This document shows, one piece after another, positions 6,694-60,066 of a stretch of 64,000 nucleotides of DNA. This stretch comes from an uncultured Acidimicrobiia bacterium (GTDB taxonomy: Bacteria; Acidobacteriota; Terriglobia; Versatilivoradales; Versatilivoraceae), in contig CAWBAT010000005.1 of NCBI GenBank assembly GCA_963786955.1, positions 160,001 through 224,000 on the forward strand. The letters run 5' to 3'. A program made the position numbers and the translations under genes. How positions within the stretch are numbered: the first letter of the stretch is position 1; the number at the start of each line of letters is the position of its first letter. The notes under the pieces are model-generated. The model did no database searches and was not told the origin of the DNA. It was given only the letters and a program-made list of their open reading frames with translations.

Positions 6694-6718
6694 CTTAAAC
6701 CTCATTAATTCAATAGTT

Positions 6719-8989: not shown

Positions 8990-9002
8990 AAGGGGATTAA
9001 CC

Positions 9003-9218: not shown

Positions 9219-9221
9219 CCA

Positions 9222-11447
9222 ATGGCAAAAGAAAAGCCCGCTGGAGTAAACAGCGGGCCTGGAACAAATTCCAATAAACAGAATCATTCTAGCACACCCG
9301 CGCCCTCTCTTCCTGAGTTTCTGTCTGCTTTTTTTGGTTCTGATGAACCCATACACTTCCGGGCCTTTGGGCCGAAGGGCTGCGATTCCAACAAGCTGGA
9401 ATTTAAGCCAATCAAGCGAATGGCAACACTCGAAGAACTCCCCGGGCTAAAAACAGACCTAGTGAAAATCAATCGCACCCGAGGGCTTTACTTTGTAGTA
9501 AACCCCGGAGGCGACAAAGATTCAGACATTTCCCGTTATACCGCGGCCTTTGTAGAAAGCGACACCCGGCCTATCTCAGAGCAACATTCAGTTTTAGATA
9601 AAGCCCCTCTTCCCTCTTCCATTCGAGTTGAAACAAAAAAATCCGTACATGCTTATTGGCTACTCAAGCCCGGCGGTACAGAGGCCCAATGGAGGCAAAT
9701 GCAGGCCGGGCTATTGGCCCATTTCGGCGGAGACCCGGCAATCAAGAACCCTTCCCGGGTGATGCGGCTCCCATTTTTCAAGCATGTTTCATTGAACGGC
9801 TCGGGCTTGGTTTACAAGCGGGTTGAGCTTCGGCAATTCGACCCGGAGCGGCGCTATTCGGCTGAAGAACTGTTGAAAGCTTTTCCCGCTCCCCAGGATG
9901 AGCCGGGGCCAAGGGAAGAGACAAAAGGGAAGAACCCCGGCATTTATACAACCTGGGATGAATTGAACGCGGAACTGCGGCGCCGGATTGCGGCGCATCC
10001 AAGCGCGGCTATTAGGCCGGACGGAACAATCCATTCTCAAGGCGTCTGCCATGCTGGAAAGAGTATTGGAAAGGCCGGGGCTTTGATTCTATTCCCGGGA
10101 ACCGGGGCCTTTAGCTGTACGTCGGGATGTGAGACCCCGGCCATTCTGAAGGCCTTCGGGCTTCCTGAGAAGCCGGAGGGGAGGGTTGAGGTTGACTTGA
10201 ATTCAGGCTCGGAAGAAGAAGAGGCCTCCCCACAATTGACGCTTGAGCCGGAGGCCTTTCAAGGGATTCTTGGCGACATTGTAGGGACGATTGAACCACA
10301 CACAGAGGCCGACCCCGCGGCTTTGTTGGCTCAATTCTTGGTTGCTCTCGGGAACTTGATCGGGTTCGGGCCTTATGTCAAAGCGGACGGGGGCTTGCAT
10401 GGAACTAATCTGTTTGCTGTTTTAGTTGGCAAGTCAAGCAAGGCTAGAAAAGGAACTTCCTGGGGCTGGGTTCATTCGATTATGAAAGAGGTTGATGAGA
10501 TTTGGGAATCTAAGCGCATTGCGTGCGGGCTCTCTAGTGGAGAGGGCCTGATTTACGCTGTGCGGGATCCGTTGGAAAAAAGAGAAGGGCCCCCGGGATC
10601 CCGGCGTTGATGACAAACGCTTGCTTGTTGTAGAGACCGAATTCAGCGCGGCACTCAAATCAATGAACCGGGAAGGCTGCACTCTCTCTGCAATCATTCG
10701 GCAAGCATTTGACCGGCAAACCCTCCGCACCCTAACCCGGAATTCCCCTATTAGTGCGACTGAACCGCATGTGTCAATCATTGGGCACATTACCGCGGAT
10801 GAATTAAGAAGGCTTCTCACCGAGGTTGAGTGTTGGAACGGGTTCTCCAATCGGTTTCTATGGCTTTTCACTCGCAGAAGCAAACTATTGCCCGAGGGCG
10901 GGAAACTTGATGCAGCGGCCCTTGTGCCTTTCTATGAGCCCCTGCGCAAAGCGGTCAATTTTGCGCGTACCGTTGATGAGGTAGGACGTACTGAGGAATT
11001 TAGAGGGCGATGGGCGGAAGTCTATCCGGCGTTGAGTGCTGAGCATCCGGGGCTATTGGGTGCGGTAATAAGCCGGGGGAGGCGCTTACTCTTCGGCTCT
11101 CTCTTCTCTACGCCCTGCTTGATTCTTCGCCCATCCTGAAAGAGAAGCATCTAAAAGCGGCCCTGGCTGTTTGGCAATATGCCGAGGATTCGGCCCGGCT
11201 GGTGTTTGGTAAGAAAGCGGGCGATGCCTTGGCTAACAAGATTCTCGAATTCCTGAGTCAGTCTGAAGGCGGGCGGCTGAGCAAGACTGAAATATCAAAT
11301 AAGTTAGGCCGACATCAGAAGGCGGAACGTATTGATGAAGCCCTTGACACCCTTCGAAGGCTTGGGTTGGCAGAGTGTATTCAGCAAGAAACAGAAGGCA
11401 GGCCTATTGAACTATGGAAAGTTAAGAGTGCGAAACAAGCGAATTAA
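9222..11447 (+). CDS. RepB-type primase fused to a DUF3987-like helicase/ATPase and winged helix, split by frameshifts (9222-10610, 10621-11139, 11202-11447)
   Basis: FVESD, VETKKSVHAYW and DPAIKNPSRVMRLP (RepB/AEP primase); VGKSSKARKGTS, GLSSGEGL, EFS..LK and NGFSNRFLW (DUF3987-like). Confidence 0.8.
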
Positions 11448-11502
11448 GCGAATTAAGCCCCTATTTTCGACCCTTATTTCATCAATTTCGCTTATTTCGC
11501 AC
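11428..11502. promoter_or_regulatory. Inverted 9-bp iteron array, putative replication origin of the satellite
   Basis: Left GTGCGAAACAAGCGAATTAAGCGAATTAAG; right side (reverse complement) GTGCGAAATAAGCGAAATTGATGAAATAAG; located at the helicase 3' end. Confidence 0.6.
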
Positions 11503-11525
11503 CCTGAGAGTTGAGGTTAGAAGCA

Positions 11526-11783
11526 ATGAGTTACTTGGGAATCTTAAAGAAAGCTGAGGGGCAAGGGTACGGCCCCGGAAGGCCCTCCCCTGAGAACGCG
11601 AAGCGCGGCATCGAGGAAAGAAATGCAGAGGCTAGACTACTTCTTAATGAACTCGATCGGGCTTATAACATGGCGTTCTTTGAGCTCTGCATCCGCGGAA
11701 TTGCTGAAGATGAGGGCCGCAAGAGAGCAATGCAAGAGACAACATCGAGTGAGGTTTATAGAAGATGGAGAGCATTGAGATGA
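11526..11783 (+). CDS. Hypothetical protein of the satellite
   Basis: ORF beginning MSYLGILKK, in the same orientation between the origin and terS. Confidence 0.55.
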   Translation: MSYLGILKKAEGQGYGPGRPSPENAKRGIEERNAEARLLLNELDRAYNMAFFELCIRGIAEDEGRKRAMQETTSSEVYRRWRALR

Positions 11784-11831
11784 CAACCAATTCCATTACA
11801 ATAGACAACTTGTTTGTTATCAATTGGGTAC

Positions 11832-11910
11832 GGGAGGGGAGGGGAAAATCCCTGCCCAGGCCGAGTGAGACCATGCGCCGACCCTTTCCGTAGCTGAAAT
11901 TAGGTTTTTT
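11832..11910 (+). other. Putative cos-like packaging site
   Basis: GGGAGGGGAGGGGAAAATCCCT...AGACCATGCGCCGACCC...GAAATT immediately upstream of terS resembles the HK97-type cos context as I recall it. Confidence 0.45.
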
Positions 11911-11919
11911 TAATTAGAG

Positions 11920-12282
11920 GTGATTATGAATTACCGCAGAGCCCCCGGGCATTTGTCAAAAGAGTCAAAAAGTTGGTGGAAACTCATCTTCAATTCATAC
12001 GAGATGGATGAAAGCGGCTCATTCATTCTTAGACAGGCGTTGGAATGTTACGACCGCCTATTAGAGGCACGGCAAGACATTAAAAAAAACGGGCTGACGA
12101 TTTCTGACCCCGTGACAAAGCAACTAAGACAGAACCCGGCCCTGAAAACGGAGAAGGAAGCGAGGAGCGGCTTATTGCAGGCATGGCGGCTGATGAGAAT
12201 TGATATTGAACCCCCACGGCCCACGGCGGGCAGGCCTCCACAGGGGAAGAAAGGAGCGCGGTTCTTTCATGGCAACGATTAG
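11920..12282 (+). CDS. terS: Phage terminase small subunit (P27-like family)
   Basis: APGHLSKESKSWW, L...LECYDR...AR..IKKNGLT and NPA motifs. Confidence 0.85.
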   Translation: MIMNYRRAPGHLSKESKSWWKLIFNSYEMDESGSFILRQALECYDRLLEARQDIKKNGLTISDPVTKQLRQNPALKTEKEARSGLLQAWRLMRIDIEPPRPTAGRPPQGKKGARFFHGND

Positions 12283-12715
12283 ATACAAAACCCGCAAGAG
12301 GTTGTCAGGCTCAAATGAATTCACCCAGGCCAATCGAGAGCATTTGTTGAAGGGATTTCACTTCTTCGGAAAAAGTTATCCCGCAACACCCGAAGGCAAT
12401 AATGCTATGCGAGCCGATTGGTTTAGACATCGGGCTTCGCTCATGCGGGAGCACATTTCCAAAAAACCGGGAACAAGGCCCTGGGCTTGGTGGCTGTATG
12501 AGTCCAAAGAGCCCCGGCGGCTTTTGTCTGGGAAGGCCTGGGATTGCAGCGAAAAACTGTCTATGGGCAAGCCGAGCCTTTATGAAAGAGACGAGAATGA
12601 CCTGCCCCATTGGGAGTGGCAAAGCGAATATTTGAAGCGGCTGAATCTATTGACACCCGATGAACGCCGGGCCCTTTGGTTCGCAGATGAAGAGAAGCTG
12701 AAAAAGGGAATTTAG
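12269..12715 (+). CDS. Hypothetical Trp-rich protein
   Basis: ATG at 12269 with AAGGAG upstream; overlaps the terS end; PGTRPWAWW and ..EYLKRLNLL motifs. Confidence 0.65.
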   Translation: MATIRYKTRKRLSGSNEFTQANREHLLKGFHFFGKSYPATPEGNNAMRADWFRHRASLMREHISKKPGTRPWAWWLYESKEPRRLLSGKAWDCSEKLSMGKPSLYERDENDLPHWEWQSEYLKRLNLLTPDERRALWFADEEKLKKGI

Positions 12716-12980
12716 AGCTGAACCCGAAAGAGCTTAAAGAGCAAGAAGCTTTCAGAGAAACACTTTTCAGGGAGAATTCAGAAAAAGTTGTGCGGCTTCC
12801 CAGAGGGAGAACGGTGGGGGATTTATGAGCGATGAGAATTTTGCATTTTGGCTAGCACAAGAACATAATTGAAATCCTATTCGTCGCACAGCACTTGAAT
12901 CCGAATTCCAATAGAGAGTTTATTAAAATCGGCTGTCATGGTTTAGGCGTAAGGGTGGAAATAGAATCGATCCTGAATCC

Positions 12981-14207
12981 TTGCGTTTAAGGGGGAAGGC
13001 TATGGGATTTCTATCCAAATTGTTTGGCAAAACCACTAAAAAGGATGCACCAATAGAAGTTAACGTTTCAGGAGAATTTTCAGTAAATGTAGTCGGTGAA
13101 TCGCATTACCAGGAGCACCTTGAGAGAATTTGTGGCGGCCGTAGAGAAGAAGGATCAAGAATGACAATTGCAGCTCAATTAATATATGACAACAATAATC
13201 CATACGATAATAACGCTATAAGGATAGACATCCTTGGGAAGCCGGTGGGATTTCTTTGTAAAACAGATGCCGAGAATTATCGAACTTGTATGCTTTCTAA
13301 GGGATTTGATGGAAGGACTGCCACTTGCATGGCAAAAATATCTGGAGGATGGAAACGAGAAAGCGGAGATATCGGTGCCTTTGGAGTGGTTCTATATATA
13401 CGAGAGGAATTCTTTCAGATCGTTGCAGATAATATTCCTTCTTTACATCGCAATGACGGCACTGTTGATACGGCCGAAACAACTTTTTGGGTTGAAGATG
13501 CAGTGGTCTGGGAATTACCGGAATGTCGTCTAGGCGATTTCGTTAAATTTTGGATACCGAAAGATGATCCGGATCTGGTATTCATATATCGTCGGAGATC
13601 TGTTGGAGGCACTGGCAGAATTGGAGTTGTACCCTACAGACATGCTCGGGCCATTGCCGGTCATATGTCTGACGAGTCTGGGGAACGGGGGGAATGTGAA
13701 ACCGAAATAGTTTCGCTTGACAGCAATCACTGCAAGATCAGATATCGACTCATTTCAGAGACTGAGACAGCGGCCAATAAGGCTAAGAAATTAGAGTTAC
13801 TAAGAGCCGATAAGGCTAAGAAATTAGAGTTACTAAGAGCCGAGTTGACAAAGAAATATACACCAAGTAAACCATTTACGATTTTTATTGATCCCAAGGG
13901 TGCCAAAGCCCTGAAATCCGGCGAAAAACTTAAAATTGAATTTGATGAACTCGAATTCTATGTTCGCGATCAATATAAATGGCAATTCAGGCTAATCGAC
14001 AAAAAGGGGAGAACCATTAGCCCAAAGTGGGTTGCCGGTGGCAACATGAAGAAAATTTTGAAGGCACATTTCAATGAGTATTCTTTTGATGTCGAAGTCG
14101 TATCAGCTACCAAGAAGCTTAACGAGTACTGTTATAGTGATATTGAATTGCGTGTTACTCCTTATAAAGGTGAAATCCCCTCCCGGGGACAATCACCAGT
14201 AACGTAA
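12981..14207 (+). CDS. HIRAN-domain protein (satellite cargo)
   Basis: VVGESHYQ, NNPYDNNAIRI and VGFL; AT-richer than the core module; likely start MGFLSKLFG at ~13002. Confidence 0.75.
   Translation: MRLRGKAMGFLSKLFGKTTKKDAPIEVNVSGEFSVNVVGESHYQEHLERICGGRREEGSRMTIAAQLIYDNNNPYDNNAIRIDILGKPVGFLCKTDAENYRTCMLSKGFDGRTATCMAKISGGWKRESGDIGAFGVVLYIREEFFQIVADNIPSLHRNDGTVDTAETTFWVEDAVVWELPECRLGDFVKFWIPKDDPDLVFIYRRRSVGGTGRIGVVPYRHARAIAGHMSDESGERGECETEIVSLDSNHCKIRYRLISETETAANKAKKLELLRADKAKKLELLRAELTKKYTPSKPFTIFIDPKGAKALKSGEKLKIEFDELEFYVRDQYKWQFRLIDKKGRTISPKWVAGGNMKKILKAHFNEYSFDVEVVSATKKLNEYCYSDIELRVTPYKGEIPSRGQSPVT
13777..13842 (+). repeat. 33-bp perfect in-frame tandem duplication
   Basis: ATAAGGCTAAGAAATTAGAGTTACTAAGAGCCG x2, encoding KAKKLELLRA twice. 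Confidence 0.9.
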
Positions 14208-14375
14208 TTTGGGGCGGAGCGAGCGGGATTCAAATCTTTGCGCCCGCACCCTTCTTTAATTTTAAGAACATTGTTTTATTTATAGCCCGTGACCTATGAT
14301 ATTCTGCTTTAAGGTCAGTTCTTTTCAACTAAACAATTGTGTGTGGTCGGACTCCCATCCCCGAAAGGAGACTCT

Positions 14376-15227
14376 ATGCCGATTGTACCAACCAAAGTAT
14401 CCGAGAGACTCTCGGCTGGTATCAAACGTTTTCAACCCATTCTGGCTTCCGCCAAATCGCGGGACGTAAACGAATCAGACACTGTGATCATAGTGACCGA
14501 CATGATGGCAGACATTTTCGGCTATGACAAATATTCAGAAATTACCTCGGAATTCAGTATTCGTGGAACATTTTGCGATTTAGCAATTAAGCTGGATGGC
14601 TCCCTACAGTTTCTTATCGAAGTAAAGGCAATCGGGCTTGACCTTAAGGAATCCTATATCAAACAAGCTGTTGATTATTCTGCCAACCAAGGCTCTGAAT
14701 GGGTACTTCTCACCAACGGAGAAATATGGAGAGTTTTTAAGGTGAGCTTTTCGAAACCAATAGAACAAGAACTCGTCCTTCAATTCAACTTTGCCCAGTT
14801 GAATCCCAAAAAGGCAGATGATCTTGAACTTGTCTACCACATTACACGAGAAGGTTGGCTCAGATCAGCGCTTGGTGACTTCCATGCTCAAAAACAAGCT
14901 TTAAGCCGATTCTTTCTGGCCGCTATGGTAACTGGTGATGGTGTATTGGATGTCATTAGAAAAGAAATCCGCAAACTGTCTCCAGACGTCCGAATAAGCA
15001 ACGATCAAATCCGGACCGTTTTAATGCAGGAAGTCTTAAAGCGTGAAGTTGTCGAGGGAGAGAAAGCTGAAGAGGCAAAAAAGCGGGTCCAAAAGGTCGC
15101 AGGCAAGGTGGTCAAATCTAAGCAGCCAAAAACATCAGAATCCCTCGCCACAAGAGAAGAAAAGGAGACCGCCGGTAGCAACGCAATGGAACTTAAAGCA
15201 AAAGAAAACCAACAAAGACAAAATTGA
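14376..15227 (+). CDS. Type I restriction HsdR-N-like PD-(D/E)XK nuclease domain protein
   Basis: NESDT, FGYD, CDLAI...IEVKA, QAVDY and LTNG motifs; no neighbouring methyltransferase. Confidence 0.85.
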   Translation: MPIVPTKVSERLSAGIKRFQPILASAKSRDVNESDTVIIVTDMMADIFGYDKYSEITSEFSIRGTFCDLAIKLDGSLQFLIEVKAIGLDLKESYIKQAVDYSANQGSEWVLLTNGEIWRVFKVSFSKPIEQELVLQFNFAQLNPKKADDLELVYHITREGWLRSALGDFHAQKQALSRFFLAAMVTGDGVLDVIRKEIRKLSPDVRISNDQIRTVLMQEVLKREVVEGEKAEEAKKRVQKVAGKVVKSKQPKTSESLATREEKETAGSNAMELKAKENQQRQN

Positions 15228-44994: not shown

Positions 44995-45410
44995 TTCTTA
45001 TTCCCCCTTACTTAAAGGGCGCCGGGGGATGTCCTGTTTTGTGAATTCTTCATTTGGCATTCGTCATTCAGCATTTATCATTTCTGACTTTAGACTCTTA
45101 ACCTTAGACCTTTGACCTATTTTCTGCTTTCTGCCTTCTGACTTTTGACCTCAGACCTCTGACTTTCGACGTTTAAGTTTGACCTTAGATCTTGGACAAA
45201 ATTTTTGCGTCCTTTGCGCTCTTTTGCGGCAATACTTGCTTTGACTTTTTCTTTAGGTTTTAGACTTTGGACTTTCGACCTTCGACCTTGGACCCTCGCT
45301 AATCTCCATTCGCCATTCGTCATTTCTGACTTTGGACTTTCAACCTTTGACTCTGAAACTCCGAACTCTTATCCCTGCCTTCTGCTTACTGCTTACTGCC
45401 TTCTGTCTTC
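44995..45410. repeat. Composite heptamer/nonamer repeat block
   Basis: Shares ~70 bp with 58375-58444; heptamer runs present. Confidence 0.8.
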
Positions 45411-45411: not shown

Positions 45412-46605
45412 TCACCCCCGCAGTATCCCCATTCCATACTTGTTAGCCAGGCGGACTGCTCGAAGCGGGTAATAGAGAAACGAAAGCTTCGAAGGCAGCG
45501 AAAGGAGAGTCCAATCCGCCAGAGTTGGAGCCAGCGCAATGCTGAATGAATAACGTAACCCGTCACGCAGCCGCTCCCGGACGCGGAGATGAAACAAGGC
45601 AGCATTGAAGCCATCCGAGGGTTTGCCCAGGTCAGAGAATAACCAGGCGTAAACTCTTGTAGCCAGAGTTTCCACTACGGGTATCTTCTGCATCGCGATC
45701 AACATTTCGCTGGGAACCTCGGCTCCCAATAGATCGTTAGCCAGAAAGAGCCCCAGTAGCAGCATGCGCTCGCAACCCATGACTCTGGCCTGCTCCAGGA
45801 TCTTCTCCCATGCGAGATTTTTCTCGGCCGCGAGCAGACGAGCGATGTCGCAGATCCAACCCAGATTGAGCCAGAGATGCTTGGCGCCATGGACACAAAG
45901 AAGCAACAGCAAATCCTCCGAGGAGAGGGTCAAGACTTCCGTGCGGCAAAGCTGGACCGGATGCAATCGCCTACTCACATCGACCCACTCCAAAGGGAAA
46001 GCAAAGTCTTTGGGAGTGAGTTTGGAATGGAGTTCAACACAGATCTGGTTCTTCCCTTTGACAATTGGCCACTGACGAAGAGAAACAAGATAAGCCTCCT
46101 CTTGAGCTGGAGCCAAAGGGTACTGAGCTTGGTATCCCATAGTTGACAGCAGCGCTTTGGCACGCGGAAGATTTTCCTCTCCAAGAATGATGTCGAGGTC
46201 TCCGAACTGCCGAAAGGCCAGGTTTCCATAAGCCTTCACAGCTAAGGTAGGGCCTTTAAAGGGAATCGCCAGAATTCCGTGGGACTCCAGACGATTGAGG
46301 ATCTCCAGCAATTCCCCCGCTAGTAACAGGTTTGTTTTGGAAGTCTCGTGAAAACCCTTTTGTAGCTGGTCCAGAATGGCTTCAGGCACCGCTGCTCGAC
46401 AATTCGAATGGATGTGCCAATACAAGAGGGGCAGCAGACCATGGCGGGAGGCCGATTCGGTCAGCACGTCCCATTTGAGCCCTTTTTCGACGAGAGCATG
46501 TATTCGTTCGGTCCTCTCCGGATCGCTCCCAACCGAGGCAACCAGGACTAGTAGCTCATCTTCGGGCCGCAGAGCGATTCGCCTATTAGATCTGACGCTG
46601 ATCAC
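45412..46605 (-). CDS. Nucleotidyltransferase family protein (lasso-associated)
   Basis: FKGPTLA..Y....RQFGDLDI, VELH and HGAKHLW..L.WICD motifs. Confidence 0.88.
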   Translation of the reverse strand: MISVRSNRRIALRPEDELLVLVASVGSDPERTERIHALVEKGLKWDVLTESASRHGLLPLLYWHIHSNCRAAVPEAILDQLQKGFHETSKTNLLLAGELLEILNRLESHGILAIPFKGPTLAVKAYGNLAFRQFGDLDIILGEENLPRAKALLSTMGYQAQYPLAPAQEEAYLVSLRQWPIVKGKNQICVELHSKLTPKDFAFPLEWVDVSRRLHPVQLCRTEVLTLSSEDLLLLLCVHGAKHLWLNLGWICDIARLLAAEKNLAWEKILEQARVMGCERMLLLGLFLANDLLGAEVPSEMLIAMQKIPVVETLATRVYAWLFSDLGKPSDGFNAALFHLRVRERLRDGLRYSFSIALAPTLADWTLLSLPSKLSFLYYPLRAVRLANKYGMGILRG

Positions 46606-47026
46606 TTGTCACTCTTTCCTATCTTATTCCCCCTTAGTAAAGGGGGCGCCGGGGGATGTCCTGCTTTGAGGTTTTCTTCACTGGCACATGCTGTCCCCCT
46701 TTTGCACAAGGGGGGACTTCAGGGGGGATTGGCATTTATAATTTGTGACTTTTGACTTTCGACCTTGGACCTTTTGCCTCTGCTTTTGGCTTTCCCCGTG
46801 CCCCCGTGGCACGCTTCCCTGTTTATCCTCGCGCCCTTTGCGCTTTTTTGTGGCAAAAATTGTTCTTATCCTTTTCCAATCCGCGTTTATTCGCGTTCAT
46901 CCGCGGCTTATTTTTCTTTGTGTCTTTGCGTCCTTTGCGAGAGGTAGCTTTTCAATCTCAAATCGCCATTTTCCCTTTGGGACTCCGAACTCAGGACTCA
47001 AGACTCTAGACCTTTGACCGGGAACA

Positions 47027-49141
47027 TTATTTAACAACGCCCACGGCTCGCACAAAGCGCTCAACGTGGCTACCAGCTCCTGCCACTTGAAACCTCTCAC
47101 CTGCTTTATCTTCTCTCATCTGAGCCGCCCAGGATTGAGCATAATCCCCGCCTCGTGCCAGTAACTCCGCGTGACTTCCGGATTCAACAATCCGCCCGTC
47201 GGCCATCACGTGGATCACATCCGCATGCATGGCAGTGGTGAATCGATGCGTGATAATCAGCACCGTGCGCCCTTGGGCCAACCTGCTGAAGCGGTCGAGC
47301 CAGTCCGCTTCCGCCCAAGGGTCCATGGCACTGGTGGGCTCATCCAAGAGGATGATAGGCGCCTGCCGGAAGAATGCCCGTGCCAGGGCGATTCGTTGCC
47401 ACTCTCCCACGCTCAGCTCTGCACCATTCACAAACCACTTCCCGAGAGGATTGTCATATCTTTGAGGTAGGCGGTGGACAATGTCTTCTGCTCCGGCAGT
47501 TCGTGCGGCCTCTTCTATCGATTTCTGTGAGTTGACACGAGACATCTCCACCTCGACCCACTCTTCGGCTCCCCTCTCCCCAACACGGGAGAGGGGCTGG
47601 AGGGTGAGGGGGAAACCCCACGCGCTGCCTGCCTTCGCCAAATCTCCCAAAGCAATGTTTTCGGCTACGGTATTGTTAAAGTGGACAGGCTCCTGGAAAA
47701 GCACCGTGAGCTGCTTGCGTAAATCCTCAATCGGTAGATCACGCAAATCAGTCCCGTCCAATTCAATCAGGCCTTCGTCAGGATCATAAAAGCGGCAGAG
47801 TAACTTAATCAGAGTACTCTTCCCTGAACCGTTGAGCCCCACGACAGCCACTTTCTTCCCAGTAGAGATATTCAAAGAAAAATCCCATAGCGCAGGTTGC
47901 TGGCTGCCGGGATAGCGGAAAGTCACATGCCGGAAGCTGATCCCTTCTTCTTGATTACCTCCCTCTCCTCTTGGGAGAGGGTGTTCGACGAGCGGGTGAG
48001 GGGAGGAAGACCACGGATCAATAATCTTGCGCGAATCGGATTCTTGCTCAGATATGATTTGGGTAGTGGCGGTTCGTATCGGAATGGGGTGAGGTCCGTC
48101 AATTACCTTTGGCTTCAGCGCCAGGAACTCAAACAAATTGCCCAGAAACAGGCTGTTTGAATACAGGTGTCCGACGTTCTGCAAAAGCGATCGCATCAAC
48201 TGCTGTCCTTGATTGAAGGCCTGGGTGAAGAGTGCCAGGTCGCCCAGTGAAACCAGGCCTTGGACGGCTTTCCACACCATCCAACCCAGGGCTGCGCCAG
48301 TAATCAACAGTCCGAAGCTGCCGGCAGCCAGCTCAGCCAGACCCTGTTCTCCAGCCATCTGCACTCGTTCCTGCCGCAGTTTCCAGCGAAGAGCCTGGTA
48401 AGCCGCCTGAAAGCGCGGACCCATTCCAAAGAGCCGCAGCTCTGCGGCAGTCTCCCGGCTGGTGAGCAGCCAGTCATAGTACCAGCTACGGCGTTCTTCG
48501 GAAGTGCTCTTCAGTCTCCATTGGTGTTGGATCAGGGTATAGCGGAGCACAACATAAAGTGCCGGAAGAGTGCTGACGAAAACCGCCGCAGGCAGCCAGG
48601 CCCCGTAAGGAACCAGCACTGCGCCCATCGCCAGCAAAGTAATTCCGTTTTGGAGCAGACTACCGAGACTTTCGAGTAATTCGACAGGCCGGTAACTGGC
48701 TTCATCGCGGGCGCGATGCAGGTGGTCATAGAACTCGGGCAGATCATAAAAAGCCAGGTCGAGTTCCACGGATTTGGTGTGGACGAGTCCCGTGACATGA
48801 TCTTTCAGGAGGTCAGCCTGGATTGTCCTAACCCAGACCGTTGCGCTGCGCAGTAACTCTGTCAGCAAGAGCACGGCACCCATCAACCCCATGGGAACAA
48901 GCACCGGGCGGAAGGTTTGCCAATCGCCATGAGAACCGAGGACAGGGACGAGGCTATTCACCAGCCACCGGGTCAGATAAACCGTAACAACAGGCAACAG
49001 CCCCTGGAACACCAGAAGGACTGCCCAAGCTATTGTCCAGCCGCGCGTCGCTCTCCAAGCCAGGCGCAATGCTCGGGGAAGATTGGGCAGCTGGGCGGCA
49101 GCCTTTCTTAATTTGCCAATGAGGAGTGGAAGATTTTGCAA
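47027..49141 (-). CDS. ABC exporter (TMD+NBD) with two in-frame repeat insertions
   Basis: GLNGSGKS, LSVGEWQR, LLDEPTS and ITHR motifs. Confidence 0.93.
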   Translation of the reverse strand: MQNLPLLIGKLRKAAAQLPNLPRALRLAWRATRGWTIAWAVLLVFQGLLPVVTVYLTRWLVNSLVPVLGSHGDWQTFRPVLVPMGLMGAVLLLTELLRSATVWVRTIQADLLKDHVTGLVHTKSVELDLAFYDLPEFYDHLHRARDEASYRPVELLESLGSLLQNGITLLAMGAVLVPYGAWLPAAVFVSTLPALYVVLRYTLIQHQWRLKSTSEERRSWYYDWLLTSRETAAELRLFGMGPRFQAAYQALRWKLRQERVQMAGEQGLAELAAGSFGLLITGAALGWMVWKAVQGLVSLGDLALFTQAFNQGQQLMRSLLQNVGHLYSNSLFLGNLFEFLALKPKVIDGPHPIPIRTATTQIISEQESDSRKIIDPWSSSPHPLVEHPLPRGEGGNQEEGISFRHVTFRYPGSQQPALWDFSLNISTGKKVAVVGLNGSGKSTLIKLLCRFYDPDEGLIELDGTDLRDLPIEDLRKQLTVLFQEPVHFNNTVAENIALGDLAKAGSAWGFPLTLQPLSRVGERGAEEWVEVEMSRVNSQKSIEEAARTAGAEDIVHRLPQRYDNPLGKWFVNGAELSVGEWQRIALARAFFRQAPIILLDEPTSAMDPWAEADWLDRFSRLAQGRTVLIITHRFTTAMHADVIHVMADGRIVESGSHAELLARGGDYAQSWAAQMREDKAGERFQVAGAGSHVERFVRAVGVVK

Positions 49142-49205
49142 GGCAAGATTAACTTAATAGAATGCTCAGTGAAAAGGAACGAAGGACCATCGTGCATCGC
49201 CCCTC

Positions 49206-50198
49206 TCACAACCTGCAGTGAAGCGCCTTCTTGAATTTGACTTCAGAAGAAAGGTTTTCGAGGATGGCTTCTTTTACAGCGGGCAAAAGCGAAAGATCGT
49301 GTGGATAACTCAATTGATAAAAGATGGGTAAATTCACAACGCGGCTTAAACAGCTGAACTCAGTCGAAAGCATGTCCCGGTCACCAATATCCAGCTTATA
49401 AGCGTATCGCACTAGCTCCAGAAAGCTTTCTCTCGGTGAAATCGGAATGATACTGATAGGCCCATTATCTTCTGAAGGTTTAGAGGTGTTGAGGAAATAA
49501 ATCCTGCGTAAAATGACTGGATCGTCTTGAAAAAGAAGTGAATGATCTATTAAGTCAATTCTCTTCTTGCGCGTATAGTGGGCAACATCACAATATTCTG
49601 GTTCTCTATTAAAGAGGGAATCGACAATTTCCTTCCAAAGCCGCAGTCCTGGATATCCCGGAAATGCAAGAAGCTCTCCTTTGCTTTCTTCGAGCACCAG
49701 GCAGTCATCGGTAATAAAAGGGAATCCATCTTTCGCAAAACTTGCCGCCAAAGTAGATTTTCCCGCTCCTGTTTTACCGATGAATGCGATAGCACCCGTT
49801 TCACTCACTACTGAGCTGGCATGCAGCACAAGTTTTCCTCTTTTGCTGAGCGCAAGAGGGAATACTTGATCTAGAAACAAGTGTCTTATCGTCTCCAACG
49901 GGACTTCAGGGACGGGTGTACATTGAACATTCTCTCCGGTTCCGGAAATGTAAAAATCGGCTAGATCAGGGAAGCGGAGGAGGTAACGGTCCCCTAGTTT
50001 GCCAAAGTAAAGCCAAACCTCCTCTTCCGTTGGCCCCCATTGGTGAAACCATGGAACGAGGATCGAATTCTGCTCTCTTGGAGACAAAAGTTCAAAATTA
50101 AACTCCGGTTTGGTTTTGTCGGTGAGAAGCAATTCAGGCAACTGGATACTGCTCTCGATAACTGTTCCGTAAATTTTATGAAGCATCGACTCCTGCAA
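49206..50198 (-). CDS. HPr-kinase-like lasso peptide kinase
   Basis: LHAS, GKTGAGKST and TDD motifs; cluster context. Confidence 0.85.
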   Translation of the reverse strand: MQESMLHKIYGTVIESSIQLPELLLTDKTKPEFNFELLSPREQNSILVPWFHQWGPTEEEVWLYFGKLGDRYLLRFPDLADFYISGTGENVQCTPVPEVPLETIRHLFLDQVFPLALSKRGKLVLHASSVVSETGAIAFIGKTGAGKSTLAASFAKDGFPFITDDCLVLEESKGELLAFPGYPGLRLWKEIVDSLFNREPEYCDVAHYTRKKRIDLIDHSLLFQDDPVILRRIYFLNTSKPSEDNGPISIIPISPRESFLELVRYAYKLDIGDRDMLSTEFSCLSRVVNLPIFYQLSYPHDLSLLPAVKEAILENLSSEVKFKKALHCRL

Positions 50199-50346
50199 GT
50201 GTCATTCGATGTAGTGGAAATAAATGGGACTTGGGCCAATACAAAAAGAAGGGTAAAGAGCTTGCATGCAAGGTATTTCAGTGGTTTTGACAAAAAGTCA
50301 AATCACGCCCCATCGATCCCCCCGATAGGACCAAGAATGGAGTCGA

Positions 50347-51511
50347 CTATATTGTGTAACGCGTAACTACCTCCGCCACAAACGTGGCAGCTTCACTTGG
50401 TGAGCGAAAGAGCTTGGGATGATGCTCGTATGCCGCATTCTCTATTTCCGCAAGGCATCTTTTGCCATCACACAGGCTCAAGACTGTAAGCCGAGCTTCT
50501 CCCCTTGATGTAAGCTTTGGCTTGAAATCGGGCTGGGTTCTCTGGAGATCTCTCTTGCCGAGCAACATTCCTTTCCAGGTAGAGTGAGAAAACCAATCTT
50601 TTCTGAAGCCTCGCTCTTTAGTTGATTCCGATGGTTTTTCAAATACCTCTAGTTCCCATGCAACGACCGAGGCCCCAGGTAGAAAATGAATCTTGATCTC
50701 AATCAAATTCCCTTCCGTAACTTTGATGGCCCGTTCAATTGGAAAGAAAAGATGTTTTCTCTGAATGGTATCAGGTCGAAGTGGTGAATTTGTGACCGCA
50801 AAGCTTTCTGACAACTGGGCTGAGAACCAGCCTGCAATTCCGTGAAGTCTACCCGTCCTTCTGGCTGTAGCAGAAGCTTGTAGGCCGAATGGTTTGGCTG
50901 ACACTGTTGTGAGATCCAGAGAAGCCCCCATAACCGGCTCGCTTAGCAATTGTCCGGGTTGAAACGTAAAGCGGTAAGCGCAGTTGACAGCTACTGAACG
51001 TCCAGGTGAGAAATTTAAACCGGTCGACGAGTCGTTCCAGAAGTCGATCTGAGCAAAACTTTCGTCAGCATTCGACAGGCGCAAGGAACAAATCAACCCG
51101 CGCTGGAATCAGTCTTCCCCCAGTTTTCAAAAAGCGGTCGCGAGCGTCACTGAGAGAATCCAATAGGCCAAATTCAGGACCGAATCCAATCTGGTCAGCA
51201 ATGACGACATCAACCTTTTCTGGAAGGTCCACCCGCATAGAAAGGTCCTTGATGAAGACCACTCTATCCTGATACCCGTTGATCTCGAAAAGTTGGCGGG
51301 CCAGTTCAATGATTGCCCCTTCCTCAATCGAATAAATTCGTCGAGCTCCCGCCTGGCAGGCCAAAAGGCCGAGAATGCCTGTTCCCGCTCCAAGATCGAG
51401 AACAATATCTCCGGGTTTGACAACCTGAGCGATTGCTTGGCGAAAGGCCGAGACACGTACCTCATCTGCCAAGTAGTGGCGGTGCTCATGGAGAATCGCT
51501 GAGAAATCCAT
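50347..51511 (-). CDS. PRMT-fold SAM methyltransferase with a putative C-terminal PqqD-like domain; frameshift near 51070
   Basis: VLDLGAGTGIL, LPEKVDVVI, ARDRFLK.GG.LIP, G.LHG.AGWF and TNSP motifs; C-terminal LCDGKRCLAEI. Confidence 0.8.
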
Positions 51512-51546
51512 TTCTTCTAAAACAGTCCCCCCTCTTCACCCACCAC

Positions 51547-51717
51547 TCATACCATGCCCATCCCGGATAGGCCGTCGGGAACTGAGCCATTTTGCCCCCG
51601 AGTCAGCTTGGAAACGCTTCCGTAATCCAGCAATCTGGGGCTAGCATACACTTTCTTTCCCTTATTTTTTTCTTCACGTTCTTGCATCGTTGGATGGATA
51701 TCCGGTAACTGGTGCAT
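51547..51717 (-). CDS. Lasso peptide precursor (56 aa; core GQNGSVPDGLSGMGMV)
   Basis: AGGAGA RBS; hand translation MHQLPDIHPTMQEREEKNKGKKVYASPRLLDYGSVSKLTR-GQNGSVPDGLSGMGMV shows YxxPxL, Thr(-2), Gly1 and Asp8. Confidence 0.9.
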   Translation of the reverse strand: MHQLPDIHPTMQEREEKNKGKKVYASPRLLDYGSVSKLTRGQNGSVPDGLSGMGMV

Positions 51718-51743
51718 AATGATTTCTCCTTCAGAATTTGGTC

Positions 51744-53696
51744 TCAGACTGCATGAAGAGCGACAGCCGCCTTAAGCGTCTCACCCTGACGCGGCAAATC
51801 TTGCCTGTTCAAAAAAATGGTGTTGAACCAAAGTTCGATGCCAAAAATCATCCATAGTGGCCAAATGTGTCTAACATCATCCCCCTTGTTGTAGAATTGT
51901 GTCATTTCCTGATACATATGCCGCACACTGTTTTCGGCCACCCATCCCTGAGATACTAGGCTTAGCGAATCCCAGAGCTGCTCGGCGCCGAGAGTCTGGA
52001 ACGTCTCGACAAAAAGATGGGTGAAATCCGCTTTTGTGAGTCGCTGGCGTACTGTTTCAGGCAAATAACCTTGGCATGCCTGGCGAAGAACGAATTTGTT
52101 TTGGTTACATTGGAAGCGCTGGTCTTCTGGCAGTGCCAGTGCAAATTCAACAACCCGCCGATCATGAAGTGGGTGCCGCCCTTCTAATCCATGCCACGAT
52201 GCTTCGCGTTCTTCCATCTCGCTGGCGTGGACCACAAAACCATTAGTCGCTGCCAGATAGATTTCCCAGGGGGCAAATCCTAACGGTGATGGGCGCATCG
52301 CCTTTGTTTCAATTCGCTCAGCAAGTCGTGTTCGACCAGCAAAGCCTCTCTCGATCCAGCCGGGAGTAGGCCGTCTGTTCTCCTTTCCAAGCATTCGCCT
52401 AACCCTCGAGCGCGCACTCTGGGGAAGCAGTGGCCAGAGGCCGTAATGTAATAGTCGAGACAAGGTAACAGCAGCTCCTTCAGTTCGGAACACAAATCCG
52501 AGCTCTCGAACTAATTCTGGAACTTTGAGCCGCTGCAAAAGGTCGGCATAGCGGTACCGGCTGCCCCCCAACCACTCATCACCACCCACTCCACTCAGCA
52601 CGACGCGGATCCCTCTGTCCCTAACCAGTTGGTTCACCGGGTTCGCAGTGCCGCCATTAGGATAACCGGGAAAATCTTGGTATCGCTGTGTTCGCTCGGA
52701 ATATAAGCTGAGTTCGCCGACGTGATGGCGAGTCGAGTGCCACCTGAGATGCCATATCTTGATAACGTCATTTATATAGGCGCTCTCATCGCAGGGATAA
52801 CCGGGATAAATTGTAGAAAAAGCCTCTATCTCGGAGATACAAGAACTTCCTTCCTCTGCAAGGGAAGCGGCCACACCTGCAACTGACGACGAATCCAGCC
52901 CTCCACTCAGCGACACTCCCACTGGCGTGGTGCTCCGCAGACGACAGCGCACAGCCTCTCTGAAAATCTCCAGAAAGTGTTCAGCATAGTCTTCGTCCGA
53001 CTCGTAGCGAATCTCTGGGCATGGATCGATGGACCAGTAGCGTTGTTTCCGGAATGAACTGGGACTGAGTCGCAAGTAGTGGGCTGGTGGCAGCCGGAAG
53101 ACATTTTGAAAGAGCGTCTCCTCTTGATGAGTGATAGCACTCGCCAAATATTCGGCAATCATACCCTCATTCGGTTTACGTCGAACTAAGGGGTCGATAA
53201 AAAGCGGAGGCAACTCGGAGGAAAATAGAAATGCCCGGCCCGTGTTCACATAGTAGAACGGCTTTAATCCTAGAAAGTCTCGAGCGCAGAAAAACACCTG
53301 TTGCCGCTTGTCCCAAATTGCAAAAGCAAAGTCACCAATGATTCGCTTCGGGCACTCTTCTCCCCAGCAATCGTAGGCCTTCAGGACTAGTTCAGCATCT
53401 GTATCATCTCGAAGCCTGCCGCCTTTGGCTTCAATGGCAGCTTTCAACTCGTCTCGATTATCGACACGCCCGTCAAGCGTAAGACAGAGATTGCCGGTTT
53501 CATCAAGCAGGGGCTGTTTCTCGTGAAGGGCCTCAGGCGTCGTGCAAAGCATTTGATGACCAAGCCCGACCGGACCGTCAATCCAGTACCCCACCCCGTC
53601 AGGCCCGCGGTGTGAAATCGCGTCGGTCATCCGCTGCAGTAACCTGCGATCAACGGGAGCCCCATCCAAATTATAGATGCCAGCAATGCCGCTCAT
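51744..53696 (-). CDS. Lasso cyclase (asparagine synthetase-like, C protein)
   Basis: MSGIAG (no N-terminal Cys), SLSGGLDSS and SGVGGDE; adjacent to B1, B2 and the precursor. Confidence 0.9.
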   Translation of the reverse strand: MSGIAGIYNLDGAPVDRRLLQRMTDAISHRGPDGVGYWIDGPVGLGHQMLCTTPEALHEKQPLLDETGNLCLTLDGRVDNRDELKAAIEAKGGRLRDDTDAELVLKAYDCWGEECPKRIIGDFAFAIWDKRQQVFFCARDFLGLKPFYYVNTGRAFLFSSELPPLFIDPLVRRKPNEGMIAEYLASAITHQEETLFQNVFRLPPAHYLRLSPSSFRKQRYWSIDPCPEIRYESDEDYAEHFLEIFREAVRCRLRSTTPVGVSLSGGLDSSSVAGVAASLAEEGSSCISEIEAFSTIYPGYPCDESAYINDVIKIWHLRWHSTRHHVGELSLYSERTQRYQDFPGYPNGGTANPVNQLVRDRGIRVVLSGVGGDEWLGGSRYRYADLLQRLKVPELVRELGFVFRTEGAAVTLSRLLHYGLWPLLPQSARSRVRRMLGKENRRPTPGWIERGFAGRTRLAERIETKAMRPSPLGFAPWEIYLAATNGFVVHASEMEEREASWHGLEGRHPLHDRRVVEFALALPEDQRFQCNQNKFVLRQACQGYLPETVRQRLTKADFTHLFVETFQTLGAEQLWDSLSLVSQGWVAENSVRHMYQEMTQFYNKGDDVRHIWPLWMIFGIELWFNTIFLNRQDLPRQGETLKAAVALHAV

Positions 53697-54286
53697 ATCC
53701 GGTTCACTTCCTGCAAGAGGGTTGGATCAAAAGGCGAGAAGCGCTCGTGAATGTCGCTGCCCTCATTGAGAGGTTGTCCGAAGCACTCCACCCAGGCGTG
53801 GGCTTCAAGTAAAGCTGCTTCTTTACGCACACCGATTCGCAAGGTGCTCTCCATCCCATTCCGCCGCAAAAACCACCAGGTAACAAGCGACTGCTTGAGG
53901 CAGTTGGCCCGAAAGGGGCCGTGGTTAGCCGCGAGCCTCACCACTCTGGCAACGAGGGCTGCCTTGGCTTCGAGATCGGAGGGGCGAGAGCCTTTAGAGT
54001 CCACGGGAGTCAGTGGTTCGCTAGGGACACACCCCGGCACGCTCCCGCTTGCCACCCCTCTCAAGAGGGGACTTCTAGCCATGTCACCACCCCCTAGTCC
54101 TTCGAACAGTTCCTCCCCCTGTCTGTGTTCGAATGAAGGAGAAGCCCTTTGGGCTAGAAAAGAATAGATCCGCCGGAAGCCAAGGATGCGCATGGCCAAG
54201 GCCGCGAGTGGGAGCAGCAGCAAGGCCTGGAAAAAGATTTGCTTTTCTAAACGGCTCAGTTGAATAAGCTTGAAGAGTTTATTCAT
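53693..54286 (-). CDS. Lasso leader peptidase (B2)
   Basis: CLKQSL, LRIGVR and AHAWVE transglutaminase-like motifs. Confidence 0.92.
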   Translation of the reverse strand: MNKLFKLIQLSRLEKQIFFQALLLLPLAALAMRILGFRRIYSFLAQRASPSFEHRQGEELFEGLGGGDMARSPLLRGVASGSVPGCVPSEPLTPVDSKGSRPSDLEAKAALVARVVRLAANHGPFRANCLKQSLVTWWFLRRNGMESTLRIGVRKEAALLEAHAWVECFGQPLNEGSDIHERFSPFDPTLLQEVNRI

Positions 54287-54563
54287 CCTTAATCTCGACC
54301 AATTCCTGGTCCACTAGTTTTTGAAGTAAATCTTCCAGGTCTTTTCGAAGAATCTCGGGCTCCACCTCATATTCTGACAACAAGGTGTCATACGCTTCTT
54401 GCAGCGAGGGAGCTGTCGTCAAGACAGTCCACATGCGAGTACCCATTTCATCCAGTCCAAAATAGCGTTCGCTTTTAAGGCTGAGTATCACCGATTCACT
54501 ACCAAGAACATTGATGAGAGTATCCGATGGGATGGAAACGCGTGTTGTATTCGTTATGGTCAT
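54279..54563 (-). CDS. PqqD-family RRE (lasso B1)
   Basis: ESVIL...YFGLDE.G..MW and L..EYEV....L..DL..L...L pattern. Confidence 0.92.
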   Translation of the reverse strand: MTITNTTRVSIPSDTLINVLGSESVILSLKSERYFGLDEMGTRMWTVLTTAPSLQEAYDTLLSEYEVEPEILRKDLEDLLQKLVDQELVEIKDE

Positions 54564-54961
54564 AATCTTCTCCTGAAAGGACTCACTGCATAACTCGCGG
54601 AGGACATAGAAAATGGGCGGAGTGCACGCGGATAAACACGGGAACGATTAACCGCCAAGAACGCCAAGTACGCAGAGAAAAATGAGCCGCAAATGGAAGA
54701 TGGCGATTGGCGATTGAAAAGCTAACTCTCGCAAAGAACGCAGAGTGCGCAAAGAGAAATAAAAGAGTAAGTGTCGTCAATTAGACCTTGGGCCTTGTAC
54801 TACGGACTTTTGACCTCCTAACTTGCAATTGCTTTTTGCGTTTTTTGCGCCCTTATAGTTGTGCAATATTGCTTATTCTCTTGCCCCTGGCAGGGAAGGA
54901 GCCCGAAGGGCGACTGGAATGCCAGGGGCAAGAGAACTCATTTCGACAGCAGGAGCCCCTC

Positions 54962-58199: not shown

Positions 58200-58630
58200 T
58201 TCAGAGTCCGGAGTCAAAGGTCTAAGGTCAAATGTGCAAAATGTCGAATGTCGATTGCCAAATGTCGAATGAAACGCTGGTAGCCTCATTGAGCGTTATC
58301 GGCCTGCTGTTTTCTGCTTGCTGCCTTCTGAACTCTGACTTTTGACTTTAGACCTCAGACCTTGGATATTCATAAAGGGGGCGCCGGGGATGTCCTATTT
58401 TGTGAATTCTTCATTTGGCATTCGTCATTCAGCATTTATCATTTGTGACTTTGGACTTTCGGCCTTCGACATTGGACACTCATTCAGTTGGCTTTCCCCG
58501 TGTTCCCCGTGGTTCATACTCAATGTTTTCCCCCTTGTATTTAAGGGGGGATTACAGGGGGGTCCGCCCATAGCGTCCTTTGCGAGAATAAGTCTTTGAC
58601 CTTGGACCTTAGACTTTGGACCTTAGACTC
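58200..58630. repeat. Composite heptamer/nonamer repeat block
   Basis: Opposed heptamer runs, shared core at 58472 and a CCCCCTTGTATTTAAGGGGG unit. Confidence 0.8.
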
Positions 58631-59878
58631 TCGGTACTCACATGGCTCTCAAGACGAGATGCCACCGGGTAGTCAGCGAATGGCGATGCGCCTCTTGTCA
58701 TCAGCTCCGCCATTTGACCGCACAGCACTTCTTTCGAGAAAACACGCCTCTCTTGGGACTCTGTCCGAGGAATCCGGGTAGCTGTCAGGATGTGAGTAAC
58801 CACCAGATCCACCTGGCCGTGCGGGGCGATATAGGCGGGTCCCCCGAGCGGCCATTGCTGGACCAGATCGACAACATGGCTCTCAGTGGGGCCGACATAC
58901 AGGAAAGGGATTCCGAGGTGCAGAATGTTATAAACCTTGCACGGATGCAGAATCCCCACAAAGGGATCTCCCATCACGACCACATGCAGGTCGGCTGCGG
59001 AAAGCGAGCTGGAGAGCTGATCCAATGGTTGGTACGGCAGAGTAACGATATTATGCAGTCCATGGTGAAGTTGGAATTGCTTCACTTTTGCAAATTCGCT
59101 GCCCCCCCCCACGAAACAAAAAACGATTTCAGATTGCCCGGCCAGTCGCAAAGCTGCCTTCAGCAGGGTATCCAGGGAATGGCAAGGACTGTGATTCCCG
59201 GAATACATCACCACAAACTTCCCCGTAAGTCCGTGGCTGCTGCGAAAAGTCTTCGCGCCCGATTGAGTCATAGCCAATAACGTCGTCGTGGGACCAGGGC
59301 GGGATCACCGCGATCTTCTCTGCGGCGATACCTTTCTCAATCAGCCGCTGCTTCATGAAGCGATCTAGGACGACGAGAGTACGGGCTTCCCGGAAGCTGA
59401 AACGAGAGAAAGCTACCAGCAAGCGAGCCGCCACGGATCCCGGTTCAAGCCACCCGGCGGCCAGAGCTTCGTCAGGATTAAGATCCATCACCCAGCAGAT
59501 CAGTTGTCCTCCCCGAAGAGTGACTAGCAGCGCGGCAACAAAAGAGATTAGCGGAGGGGAGGTCATGGCTACGACCAGATCGAAGCGCGGCAACATCAGA
59601 CTACGGACTGAGCAACTCAGGATAAAACTCGCGAAGTTGAGCATTCGCCGCCAACGCGTATTTTTCCCTAGACCCAGGGACGAAATGCGAACGATCCGGA
59701 CTCCCTTCCAATTCTCCCGCTTTGGAAACATGAGGCTGGGATCATCATAGCCTCGAGCGCCGGCCAGAACTGTCACCTGATGGCCTTGTTCCGTCAAGTG
59801 GGTAGCCAGATCAGCCGCGTACTGAGCGGTGGCAACGACGTCCGGATAGAACGTCTGGTTCAAAATAAGAATTTTCAT
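58609..59878 (-). CDS. Glycosyltransferase family 4 (WcaI-like), frameshifted near 59260
   Basis: LNQTFYPD, TSPP, WVMDLNPD, YSGN and PCK.Y motifs. Confidence 0.88.
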
Positions 59879-60066
59879 TCGGAAATTTCTGATTACGCCG
59901 GTGTTATTATTTTTTAAGCGGTCGCCGGCGGATTTCCTGTTTGCTGGAGATTTTCAATCGACATTGGCATTTTCCATTTTCTGACCTCCGGACTCTAGCC
60001 TTTCGACCTTCGACCTTAGACCTTTGACTCTGGACTATTTATTTTGACCTTAGACCTTGGACCTAT

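Follow-up and report, generated by a model that had tools for sequence, protein, structure and literature searches.

Lasso operon and precursor peptide

The window analyzed here, a stretch of 64,000 nucleotides from contig CAWBAT010000005.1 of an uncultured bacterium (GenBank assembly GCA_963786955.1), carries on its minus strand, at 45412-54563, a complete operon for a lasso peptide, as read from the list of open reading frames (ORFs) together with Pfam and NCBIfam matches (Table 1). Directly downstream of the precursor gene, as the original prediction had stated, lie two ORFs encoding a methyltransferase with the fold of protein arginine methyltransferases (PRMTs). On balance, the two probably represent one S-adenosylmethionine (SAM)-dependent lasso tailoring enzyme of about 387 aa from a bacterial clade that would descend from true PRMT-type enzymes and have been repurposed, probably targeting a terminal sulfur of the peptide. 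The same prediction placed a lasso cluster at 50347-51511; the cluster itself was correctly recognized, while those coordinates span the methyltransferase alone.

The genes that mark a lasso cluster are all found in the operon, namely the cyclase, the B2 peptidase and a B1 protein of the RiPP recognition element (RRE) type, where RiPP denotes a peptide made on the ribosome and modified after translation. Against NCBIfam models, B2 scored 86 bits with lasso_biosyn_B2 (NF033537; cut-off 33) and the cyclase 528 bits with the lasso isopeptide bond-forming cyclase model NF033535 (cut-off 525), while B1 reached 53 bits with lasso_PqqD_Bac, under the cut-off of 80. The HPr-kinase-like protein also has a weak match to Pfam Hpr_kinase_C.

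Table 1. Genes and subfeatures of the lasso operon in the window, in the order of transcription.
Feature	Positions	Strand	Length	Support
B1, discrete PqqD-type RRE	54279..54563	-	94 aa	Pfam PqqD, E 4.2e-15
B2, lasso leader peptidase	53693..54286	-	197 aa	Pfam Transglut_core3, E 3e-22
C, lasso cyclase	51744..53696	-	650 aa	Pfam Asn_synthase and GATase_7
A, precursor	51547..51717	-	56 aa	ORF with AGGAG upstream
Methyltransferase, first piece (SAM-binding Rossmann domain, to ...APVEC, then TGA)	51065..51511	-	148 aa	Pfam PrmA, E 1.8e-9
Frameshift site, one base extra relative to in-frame relatives	51063..51070 (near 51064-51068)	-		
Methyltransferase, second-piece ORF	50347-51096	-	249 aa	Pfam PRMT_C PF22528, E 1.5e-9
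Methyltransferase second piece, PRMT beta-barrel with altered THW loop (TIQR)	50587..51063	-		Pfam PRMT_C
Methyltransferase C-terminal tail, from HSTW	50350..50586	-	79 aa	Conservation, PqqD matches
PqqD-like part of tail (strand 3 position and three helices)	50356-50535	-		
HPr-kinase-like P-loop protein	49206..50198	-	330 aa	NCBIfam HprK_rel_A, E 6.8e-11, below cut-off
ABC exporter	47027..49141	-	704 aa	Pfam ABC_tran, E 7e-32
NTP_transf_5 nucleotidyltransferase	45412..46605	-	397 aa	Pfam PF14907, E 1e-62

The precursor reads ...KLTR followed by GQNGSVPDGLSGMGMV, the latter being the core, and its leader follows the pattern Y-x-x-P-x-L-x-x-Y-G...K-L-T(-2)-R(-1). Around the leader-core junction (...KKVYASPRLLDYGSVSKLTR, then GQNGSVPD...), the features of a lasso precursor are found, which are YxxP, a Thr at -2, a small first core residue and an acidic residue in the 7-9 window, and the peptide scored 22 bits against the NCBIfam model lasso_leader_L3 (NF033521; cut-off 19). 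Alignment with 35 relatives shows a conserved acidic residue at core position 8, from which a ring between Gly1 and Asp8 is predicted for the window core. In agreement with the first description of this peptide, the core contains no Arg, Lys or His and the sole nearby Arg stands at -1, a position occupied by Gln in most of the aligned relatives. The family hallmark is a C-terminal Cys-Leu together with a Met-rich tail; the window peptide instead ends Met-Val (...GMGMV-stop), and this 3' end of the gene, stop codon included, is identical in contigs of sequencing run X1. Three metagenome contigs (L134, L136 and L118) carry a tandem pair of precursor genes upstream of the methyltransferase, and in L134 one member of the pair ends Cys-Leu and the other ...MMERV.

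Methyltransferase fold and arginine-binding loops

The motifs originally quoted for the methyltransferase (VLDLGAGTGIL, LPEKVDVVI, ARDRFLKTGGRLIP, GRLHGIAGWFSAQLSESFAVTNSP, ADQIGFGPE and TIQR) were all located in the two minus-strand ORFs, as was the quoted tail string ARLTVLSLCDGKRCLAEI...FVAEVV. The closest intact homologue, P0002, has 387 aa; the first piece of the window enzyme is 85% identical to its residues 1-148 and the second piece 73% identical to residues 150-386. The proposal of a PRMT fold was borne out by the AlphaFold model of P0002 (pLDDT 89), which matched PRMT1 in Foldseek at E 9e-28 with a TM score of 0.81 normalized to the target, and the best 50 listed structural matches of this model are all PRMTs. 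In a profile search of PDB sequences, the family profile matched chains of PRMT6, PRMT8 and PRMT1 at E 1e-41 to 1e-38 over profile positions 5-278, with PRMT6 as the best match (E 1.3e-41). This likeness is far above chance, and the enzyme has the order that defines PRMTs, in which a SAM-binding Rossmann domain precedes the PRMT beta-barrel. A PIMT family, which a PIMT/PCMT fold would call for, did not occur among the Pfam or NCBIfam matches of the window proteins.

In PRMTs, two glutamates of the double-E loop hold the guanidinium group of the substrate. The canonical form of this loop is absent from the window enzyme (ADQIGFGPEF) and from its clade, whose consensus is ADQIG.FGFEAG with E, D or N in the second acidic place. 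As well, the canonical THW loop is absent, being TIQR in the window and RINRRN in the clade consensus. In an alignment of 78 homologues, relatives that lack the C-terminal tail retain SE(T/W)xG...(D/E)E and THW, TSW or SHW; the tail-less L021, for instance, reads SEWMG...HET and THWQQ. The altered Arg-binding loops that had been pointed out in the window enzyme are thus a signature of the whole lasso-linked clade, while the tail-less relatives are canonical.

Family and genomic linkage

With the second piece as query, 221 proteins were found at E <= 0.001; most of the 120 listed among them have 370-392 aa with PrmA and PRMT_C, and many homologues are named 'protein arginine N-methyltransferase 1' in the source databases. 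Loci were taken from two collections and from genomes of relatives, giving 55 with a tail-bearing and 42 with a tail-less homologue, and their neighbouring genes were scored by tblastn with the window's proteins. The expected linkage of homologues to lasso genes is evident, with the HPr-kinase-like gene in 50/55 and the cyclase in 43/55 of the tail-bearing loci. Any of C, B1 or B2 was found in 46/55, and the remaining nine are contigs of 1.3-7.3 kb. Any lasso gene was found in 8/42 tail-less loci, a set that serves as a rough control because some distant class I methyltransferases are included. The NTP_transf_5 gene occurs in 13/55 tail-bearing loci. In a quick maximum-likelihood tree, rooted at the midpoint, one clade with an SH-aLRT support of 99 contains 49 of the 52 tail-bearing rows. 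Three traits thus coincide, namely the added tail, the absence of both arginine-holding motifs and a place in a lasso operon.

The kinase-like gene is also present in 13 of the 18 loci without the enzyme, which suggests that the kinase belongs to a wider family of clusters and that the methyltransferase is an add-on travelling with sulfur-rich peptide tails.

Several loci show other arrangements. Two tail-bearing methyltransferase copies occur in L009 (tandem, 761-3173) and in L111 (2-958 and 4128-5264). Locus L096, from genome G002 of the same genus as the window, has the same operon frame over 5400-14500, with identities of 88-92% for B1, 78% for B2, 72% for the ABC exporter and 81-83% for NTP_transf_5. 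The middle of L096 is divergent (cyclase 33-58%, kinase-like protein 33%, methyltransferase 26-47%) and looks like a swapped cassette; its precursor has Lys and ends ...VVKHE, and several of its genes have frame breaks. In a Planctomycetia assembly (L026, 8499-10966), a PRMT homologue without the tail and with canonical-looking motifs (TETLG...DEE, TSW) stands side by side with genes for an HPr-kinase-like protein and a discrete PqqD, and a lasso cyclase was not found within the 10-kb flanks.

C-terminal tail

The tail is the most conserved part of the methyltransferase family. In the full-length model of P0002 the barrel ends at about residue 310 and is followed by two short helices, a coil and three helices, and the tail folded alone gave the same three helices (pLDDT 87). 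The original prediction saw in this tail a likeness to the helices of PqqD and RREs. When the tail profile was searched against 5.8 billion proteins, limited to a length of 42-139 aa, 118 matches came back; 113 of them are pieces of family members, and the five left are all PqqD (PF05402; best E 4.8e-3). Moreover, a VIA-align structural search of the tail against 48,161 PDB representative chains gave PqqD 3g2b as the top match (Z 5.1, rmsd 2.0 A, 49 residues, 26% identity), and the lasso B1 chains 6jx3 and 5v1u reached Z 4.2 and 4.0. In hhalign, tail residues 18-77 aligned with residues 36-90 of a PqqD set (A6) with a probability of 97.7%, which overstates the likeness because this set was picked by similarity to the tail. 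The tail profile against PDB sequences gave five matches at E 0.4-6.6, four of them designed helical proteins and the other the PqqD domain 5sxy (E 0.95).

Other results, like the selection behind that hhalign value, weigh against this assignment. The Z of 5.1 is no higher than chance can give with small helical domains, the Pfam PqqD model matched 2 of 19 tails at E 0.014, below the cut-off, and Foldseek with the tail alone gave none at E <= 0.001, with PqqD 3g2b second at E 1.0. The tail profile had no match to the B1 family of the operon (hhalign probability 0.13%). In addition, strands 1 and 2 are missing from the tail in both models, and in the full-length model the strand before the helices belongs to the barrel. 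An RRE has been defined as three strands followed by three helices (PMC12710340). The tail, having strand 3 and three helices with the first two strands absent, is therefore not a canonical RRE. Accordingly, of the proposed PqqD/RRE-like nature of the tail, derivation from PqqD is considered likely, with all five outside matches and the top structural match pointing to it, and the RRE fold is not supported.

Binding of the leader by the tail is plausible, at slightly less than an even chance. Co-folding of the L003 enzyme with its own precursor and SAM gave a score of 0.01 and a mark of 0.32 and was counted neither for nor against binding. A segment of the tail, P-x-L-x-x-W-G-x-A-R-L-T, fitted the leader search pattern in six loci; this likeness was rejected as a coincidence, with the spacing off by one residue and the segment aligning with PqqD strand 3 and helix 1.

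Alternatively, the tail might be a docking or dimerization module, for example for the HPr-kinase-like protein or B1, resembling the winged-helix ends of other methyltransferases and binding no peptide. The enzyme and kinase-like genes abut or overlap in many loci, the PKMT C-terminal winged-helix Pfam family was matched in 2/19 tails (E 0.097), and the top named cluster of the tail in the ESM Atlas is a PKMT winged-helix domain (0.79, below the lead level). PKMT2 (Z 4.3) and Rv2067c (Z 4.1) were also retrieved by VIA-align, and the missing strands 1 and 2 of the RRE fold agree with such a role. All five outside sequence matches being PqqD speaks against this alternative, and so do the enzyme-less loci with the kinase-like gene, in which the kinase needs no such partner. 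A purely docking tail is therefore somewhat unlikely.

Interrupted reading frame

The first frame of the methyltransferase ends ...APVEC-TGA, with its stop at 51065-51067, and the second frame goes on ...ESFAQIDFW from 51063; P0002 reads through this point unbroken (APIECPEVFAQINFW). A related strain in sequencing run X3 has one base fewer at the break and stays in frame (...PVECAESF...). Because frameshifts recur in assemblies of few contigs and a close relative is in frame, the methyltransferase frameshift is probably an assembly error rather than the mark of a dead gene. With P0002 as query, frameshifted copies were found in the window, L012, L015, L028, L032, L096 and L153, and we infer that their assemblies are long-read assemblies with residual indels; the window's own genome consists of 9 contigs with a total of 5.65 Mb. 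Three of these loci (L012, L015 and L028) belong to a single series of metagenome-assembled genomes, and the positions of their frame breaks almost coincide (query residues 163-174; about 10485-10520 in each locus), which would fit a systematic base-calling error at a common sequence. A second gene of the window, for a GT4-type glycosyltransferase on the minus strand at 58612-59953, is likewise split over two frames, with Glyco_trans_4_4 at 59132-59953, Glycos_transf_1 at 58612-59304 and an overlap of 172 nt, and is likely a second indel.

The gene might instead be truly broken in this strain, the enzyme having become dispensable and decaying after the peptide lost its Cys (...GMGMV, not ...CL). 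The window peptide indeed lacks Cys-Leu, with its 3' end exactly reproduced in the contigs of run X1, and the stop sits in a non-repetitive stretch. Moreover, these contigs, identical to the window, stop short of the break at 51064-51068, and an assembly error is left less secure because the same-strain contigs do not cover it; the share of sampled words found in any sequencing run was at most 18%, and no RNA run was among those listed. Decay is nevertheless unlikely, since the break is a single one in an otherwise conserved frame at 85% and 73% identity to P0002, L094, whose peptide ends ...MV, has an uninterrupted enzyme gene, other assemblies of few contigs repeatedly show frameshifted copies, and the glycosyltransferase gene of the window is split too. 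Programmed +1 frameshifting at UGC-UGA-C was rejected, as the frame is simply open in relatives; in our own reading of the sequence around the break, neither a slippery codon nor a Shine-Dalgarno-like element upstream was seen.

Peptide cores and methylation site

Cores linked to the enzyme (n = 48) were extracted by script from the loci collected, a ring Asp or Glu being a condition. Met or Cys is present in 46/48, always inside the last six residues, 37/48 end in Cys-Leu, and Met and Cys together make up 13.3% of the residues. No Arg occurs in 27/48 linked cores, which excludes Arg as the general substrate and agrees with the earlier view that Arg is not the target. As a sample independent of the enzyme, 400 genomes of the phylum were searched with the precursor profile and then with the enzyme, "linked" meaning here that the enzyme lies on the same contig within about 5 kb. 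Met or Cys was present in 7/8 linked versus 1/14 unlinked cores (Fisher p 3.5e-4, with relatives counted that are non-independent), and the genome of the sole sulfur-bearing unlinked core has the enzyme on another contig.

Since Met or Cys tracks the enzyme (46/48 linked versus 1/14 unlinked cores), S-methylation of Cys or Met is favoured over a methyl ester; every peptide has a C-terminus, so an ester would not predict such a link. Some points weigh against a sulfur target. The sulfur link is correlative, being drawn from related clusters, and neither Met nor Cys is found in the cores of L006 and L124 of the linked set and L190 of the second sample, whose enzymes are seemingly intact. Cys cannot be the sole target because the enzymes with peptides lacking Cys-Leu keep all residues invariant in the family. 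In addition, an anionic group, for instance the C-terminal carboxylate, would be a fitting partner for the Arg-rich RINRRN loop. Between enzymes of peptides ending in Cys-Leu (30 loci) and of the others (7), two alignment columns differ, position 111 and that of the last-helix Glu in FVAEV, too few to interpret. Among the targets first proposed, Met sulfur is now favoured and the C-terminus stays a candidate, while Asn or Gln is not a general target because some family cores in the alignment with 35 relatives have neither residue.

A C-terminal methyl ester, as made by lassomycin-type enzymes but with another fold, would have the conserved hydrophobic end (Leu or Val) and the Arg-rich loop serve to read the free carboxylate. 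The RINRRN loop in place of THW and the conserved ends Cys-Leu or Met-Val agree with this possibility, and StspM and LasF have been reported to methylate the C-terminus of the linear precursor (PMC8498205). An ester leaves unexplained both the distribution of Met and Cys between linked and unlinked cores and the conserved penultimate Cys, and it appears improbable.

An ordinary PRMT placed in the operon by chance, or one methylating the leader Arg at -1, may be dismissed as highly improbable, since against the PRMT fold, the homologues' PRMT1-type names and the window's Arg at -1 stand the replacement of both Arg-binding motifs throughout the clade, the Gln at -1 in most relatives, the many Arg-free cores and the strict link to lasso genes.

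Proposed function and comparison with known systems

In the lasso tailoring methyltransferase proposed here, the SAM-binding Rossmann domain and the PRMT beta-barrel are retained, the two-glutamate and THW loops are lost, and a C-terminal domain probably derived from PqqD (strand 3 and three helices) is gained. The enzyme would act on the precursor or lasso peptide of its own operon, with the tail probably serving in the binding of the peptide or of a partner protein. The most likely place for the methyl group would be a sulfur among the final few residues, which in most members is the penultimate Cys thiol; in Cys-less members such as that of the window (...GMGMV), a Met thioether may be the target, giving a sulfonium. 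The HPr-kinase-like enzyme would probably phosphorylate a ring Ser or Thr independently. A more specific combination, in which a PRMT-fold peptide S-methyltransferase caps the penultimate Cys or, in members without Cys, makes a Met sulfonium, is guided by a cut-down PqqD without the three-stranded sheet, and serves a widespread Met-rich family in Acidobacteriota, Nitrospirota, Rokubacteria and relatives whose thioether-rich ...MGMGMCL tails might bind soft metals such as Cu(I) and so handle metal, is speculative and doubtful as a whole.

The clade shares with the type I enzymes PRMT1, PRMT6 and PRMT8 the Rossmann domain, the beta-barrel, an N-terminal helix with a conserved Arg and the LHG..WF strand. 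It differs from them in having Asp-Gln for the first double-E Glu and E, D or N in the second acidic place, in the change of THW to x-I-x-R with additional Arg residues, in the added PqqD-like tail, and in the location of its genes in lasso operons whose peptides are often Arg-free. The tail-less bacterial PRMT homologues (for example L019, L021 and L135) are 30-38% identical and have the same two domains, but possess the canonical SEWxG...E and THW, no tail and mostly no lasso genes nearby. Compared with PqqD and RREs (3g2b, 6jx3 and 5v1u), the alignment of the tail covers strand 3 and helices 1-3 and takes in an LCDG-R-x-x-x-EIE motif, but the tail is fused to the end of a methyltransferase, lacks strands 1 and 2 in the models and has no profile likeness to the B1 of the operon.

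Other SAM-dependent lasso tailoring enzymes are known. StspM and LasF, as well as the aspartyl O-methyltransferases (PAMTs) TceM and LihM, are PIMT-type and act on carboxyl groups, whereas the window enzyme has a PRMT fold (PMC8498205, PMC10787088); the PAMT clade likewise gained a C-terminal extension on becoming RiPP-linked (PMC10787088). Met S-methylation near a lasso C-terminus has a precedent in longipeptin A, which is methylated on sulfur at Met13 of 15, a plug position, with a neutral loss of 62 Da (dimethyl sulfide) reported, and for which LopH was proposed as the methyltransferase (PMC10664482). The activity of LopH is putative, the protein resembles the SAM-binding regulatory domain of MTHFR and not PRMT, and its cluster is actinobacterial and has P450 genes (PMC10664482). 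The known lasso methyltransferases are of PIMT type. Clusters for phosphorylated lasso peptides (paeninodin PadeK, BsfK, pseudomycoidin PsmK/PsmN) have the same B1, B2, C, HPr-kinase-like and ABC exporter genes and sometimes NTP_transf_5 (PMC8498205, PMC10368454); their peptides end in Ser or carry phospho-Ser3, and no PRMT-fold enzyme is reported for them in the text available.

The literature searched contained no description of an enzyme of PRMT fold in a lasso cluster or any other RiPP cluster, although supplementary tables of genome mining may list such co-occurrence. 'PRMT' does not occur in a 2024 review of RiPP methyltransferases, and the available part of a 2026 perspective describes no PRMT-fold enzyme in a RiPP pathway. 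A new observation is that sulfur-rich C-terminal ends travel with the repurposed PRMT-fold enzyme, which points to an undescribed peptide modification. The PRMT fold, known from the eukaryotic protein arginine methyltransferases, would here have been recruited with both substrate loops changed into a peptide natural-product pathway, and, if so, the clade would be a new enzyme family for RiPP tailoring, probably with a new modification. Sulfur methylation is rare in RiPPs, and the sole lasso case, the longipeptin sulfonium, has a tentative enzyme of another fold. The family is large, with the 221 proteins and 55 tail-bearing loci found here coming from hard-to-grow soil, sediment and nitrifier lineages, and its sharp precursor signature (8-residue ring, Met-rich tail, C-terminal Cys-Leu) offers a simple mass-spectrometric read-out. 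Moreover, a PqqD fragment lacking strands 1 and 2 would test what RRE function requires.

Other features of the window

A 62-nt inverted repeat at 46924-46985 and 54684-54745, with 85% complementarity, brackets the part of the operon from B1 to the ABC exporter. Copies of this element are scattered, 12 matches being counted over the genome, most of them on the same contig. As well, the nucleotidyltransferase gene is flanked by short GACTTT-type repeats at 45000-45350 and 46620-46860. The stretch at 9219-12712 (plus strand) may be mobile or prophage-like, judging from weak matches to a RepB primase domain and to the small subunit of a phage terminase.

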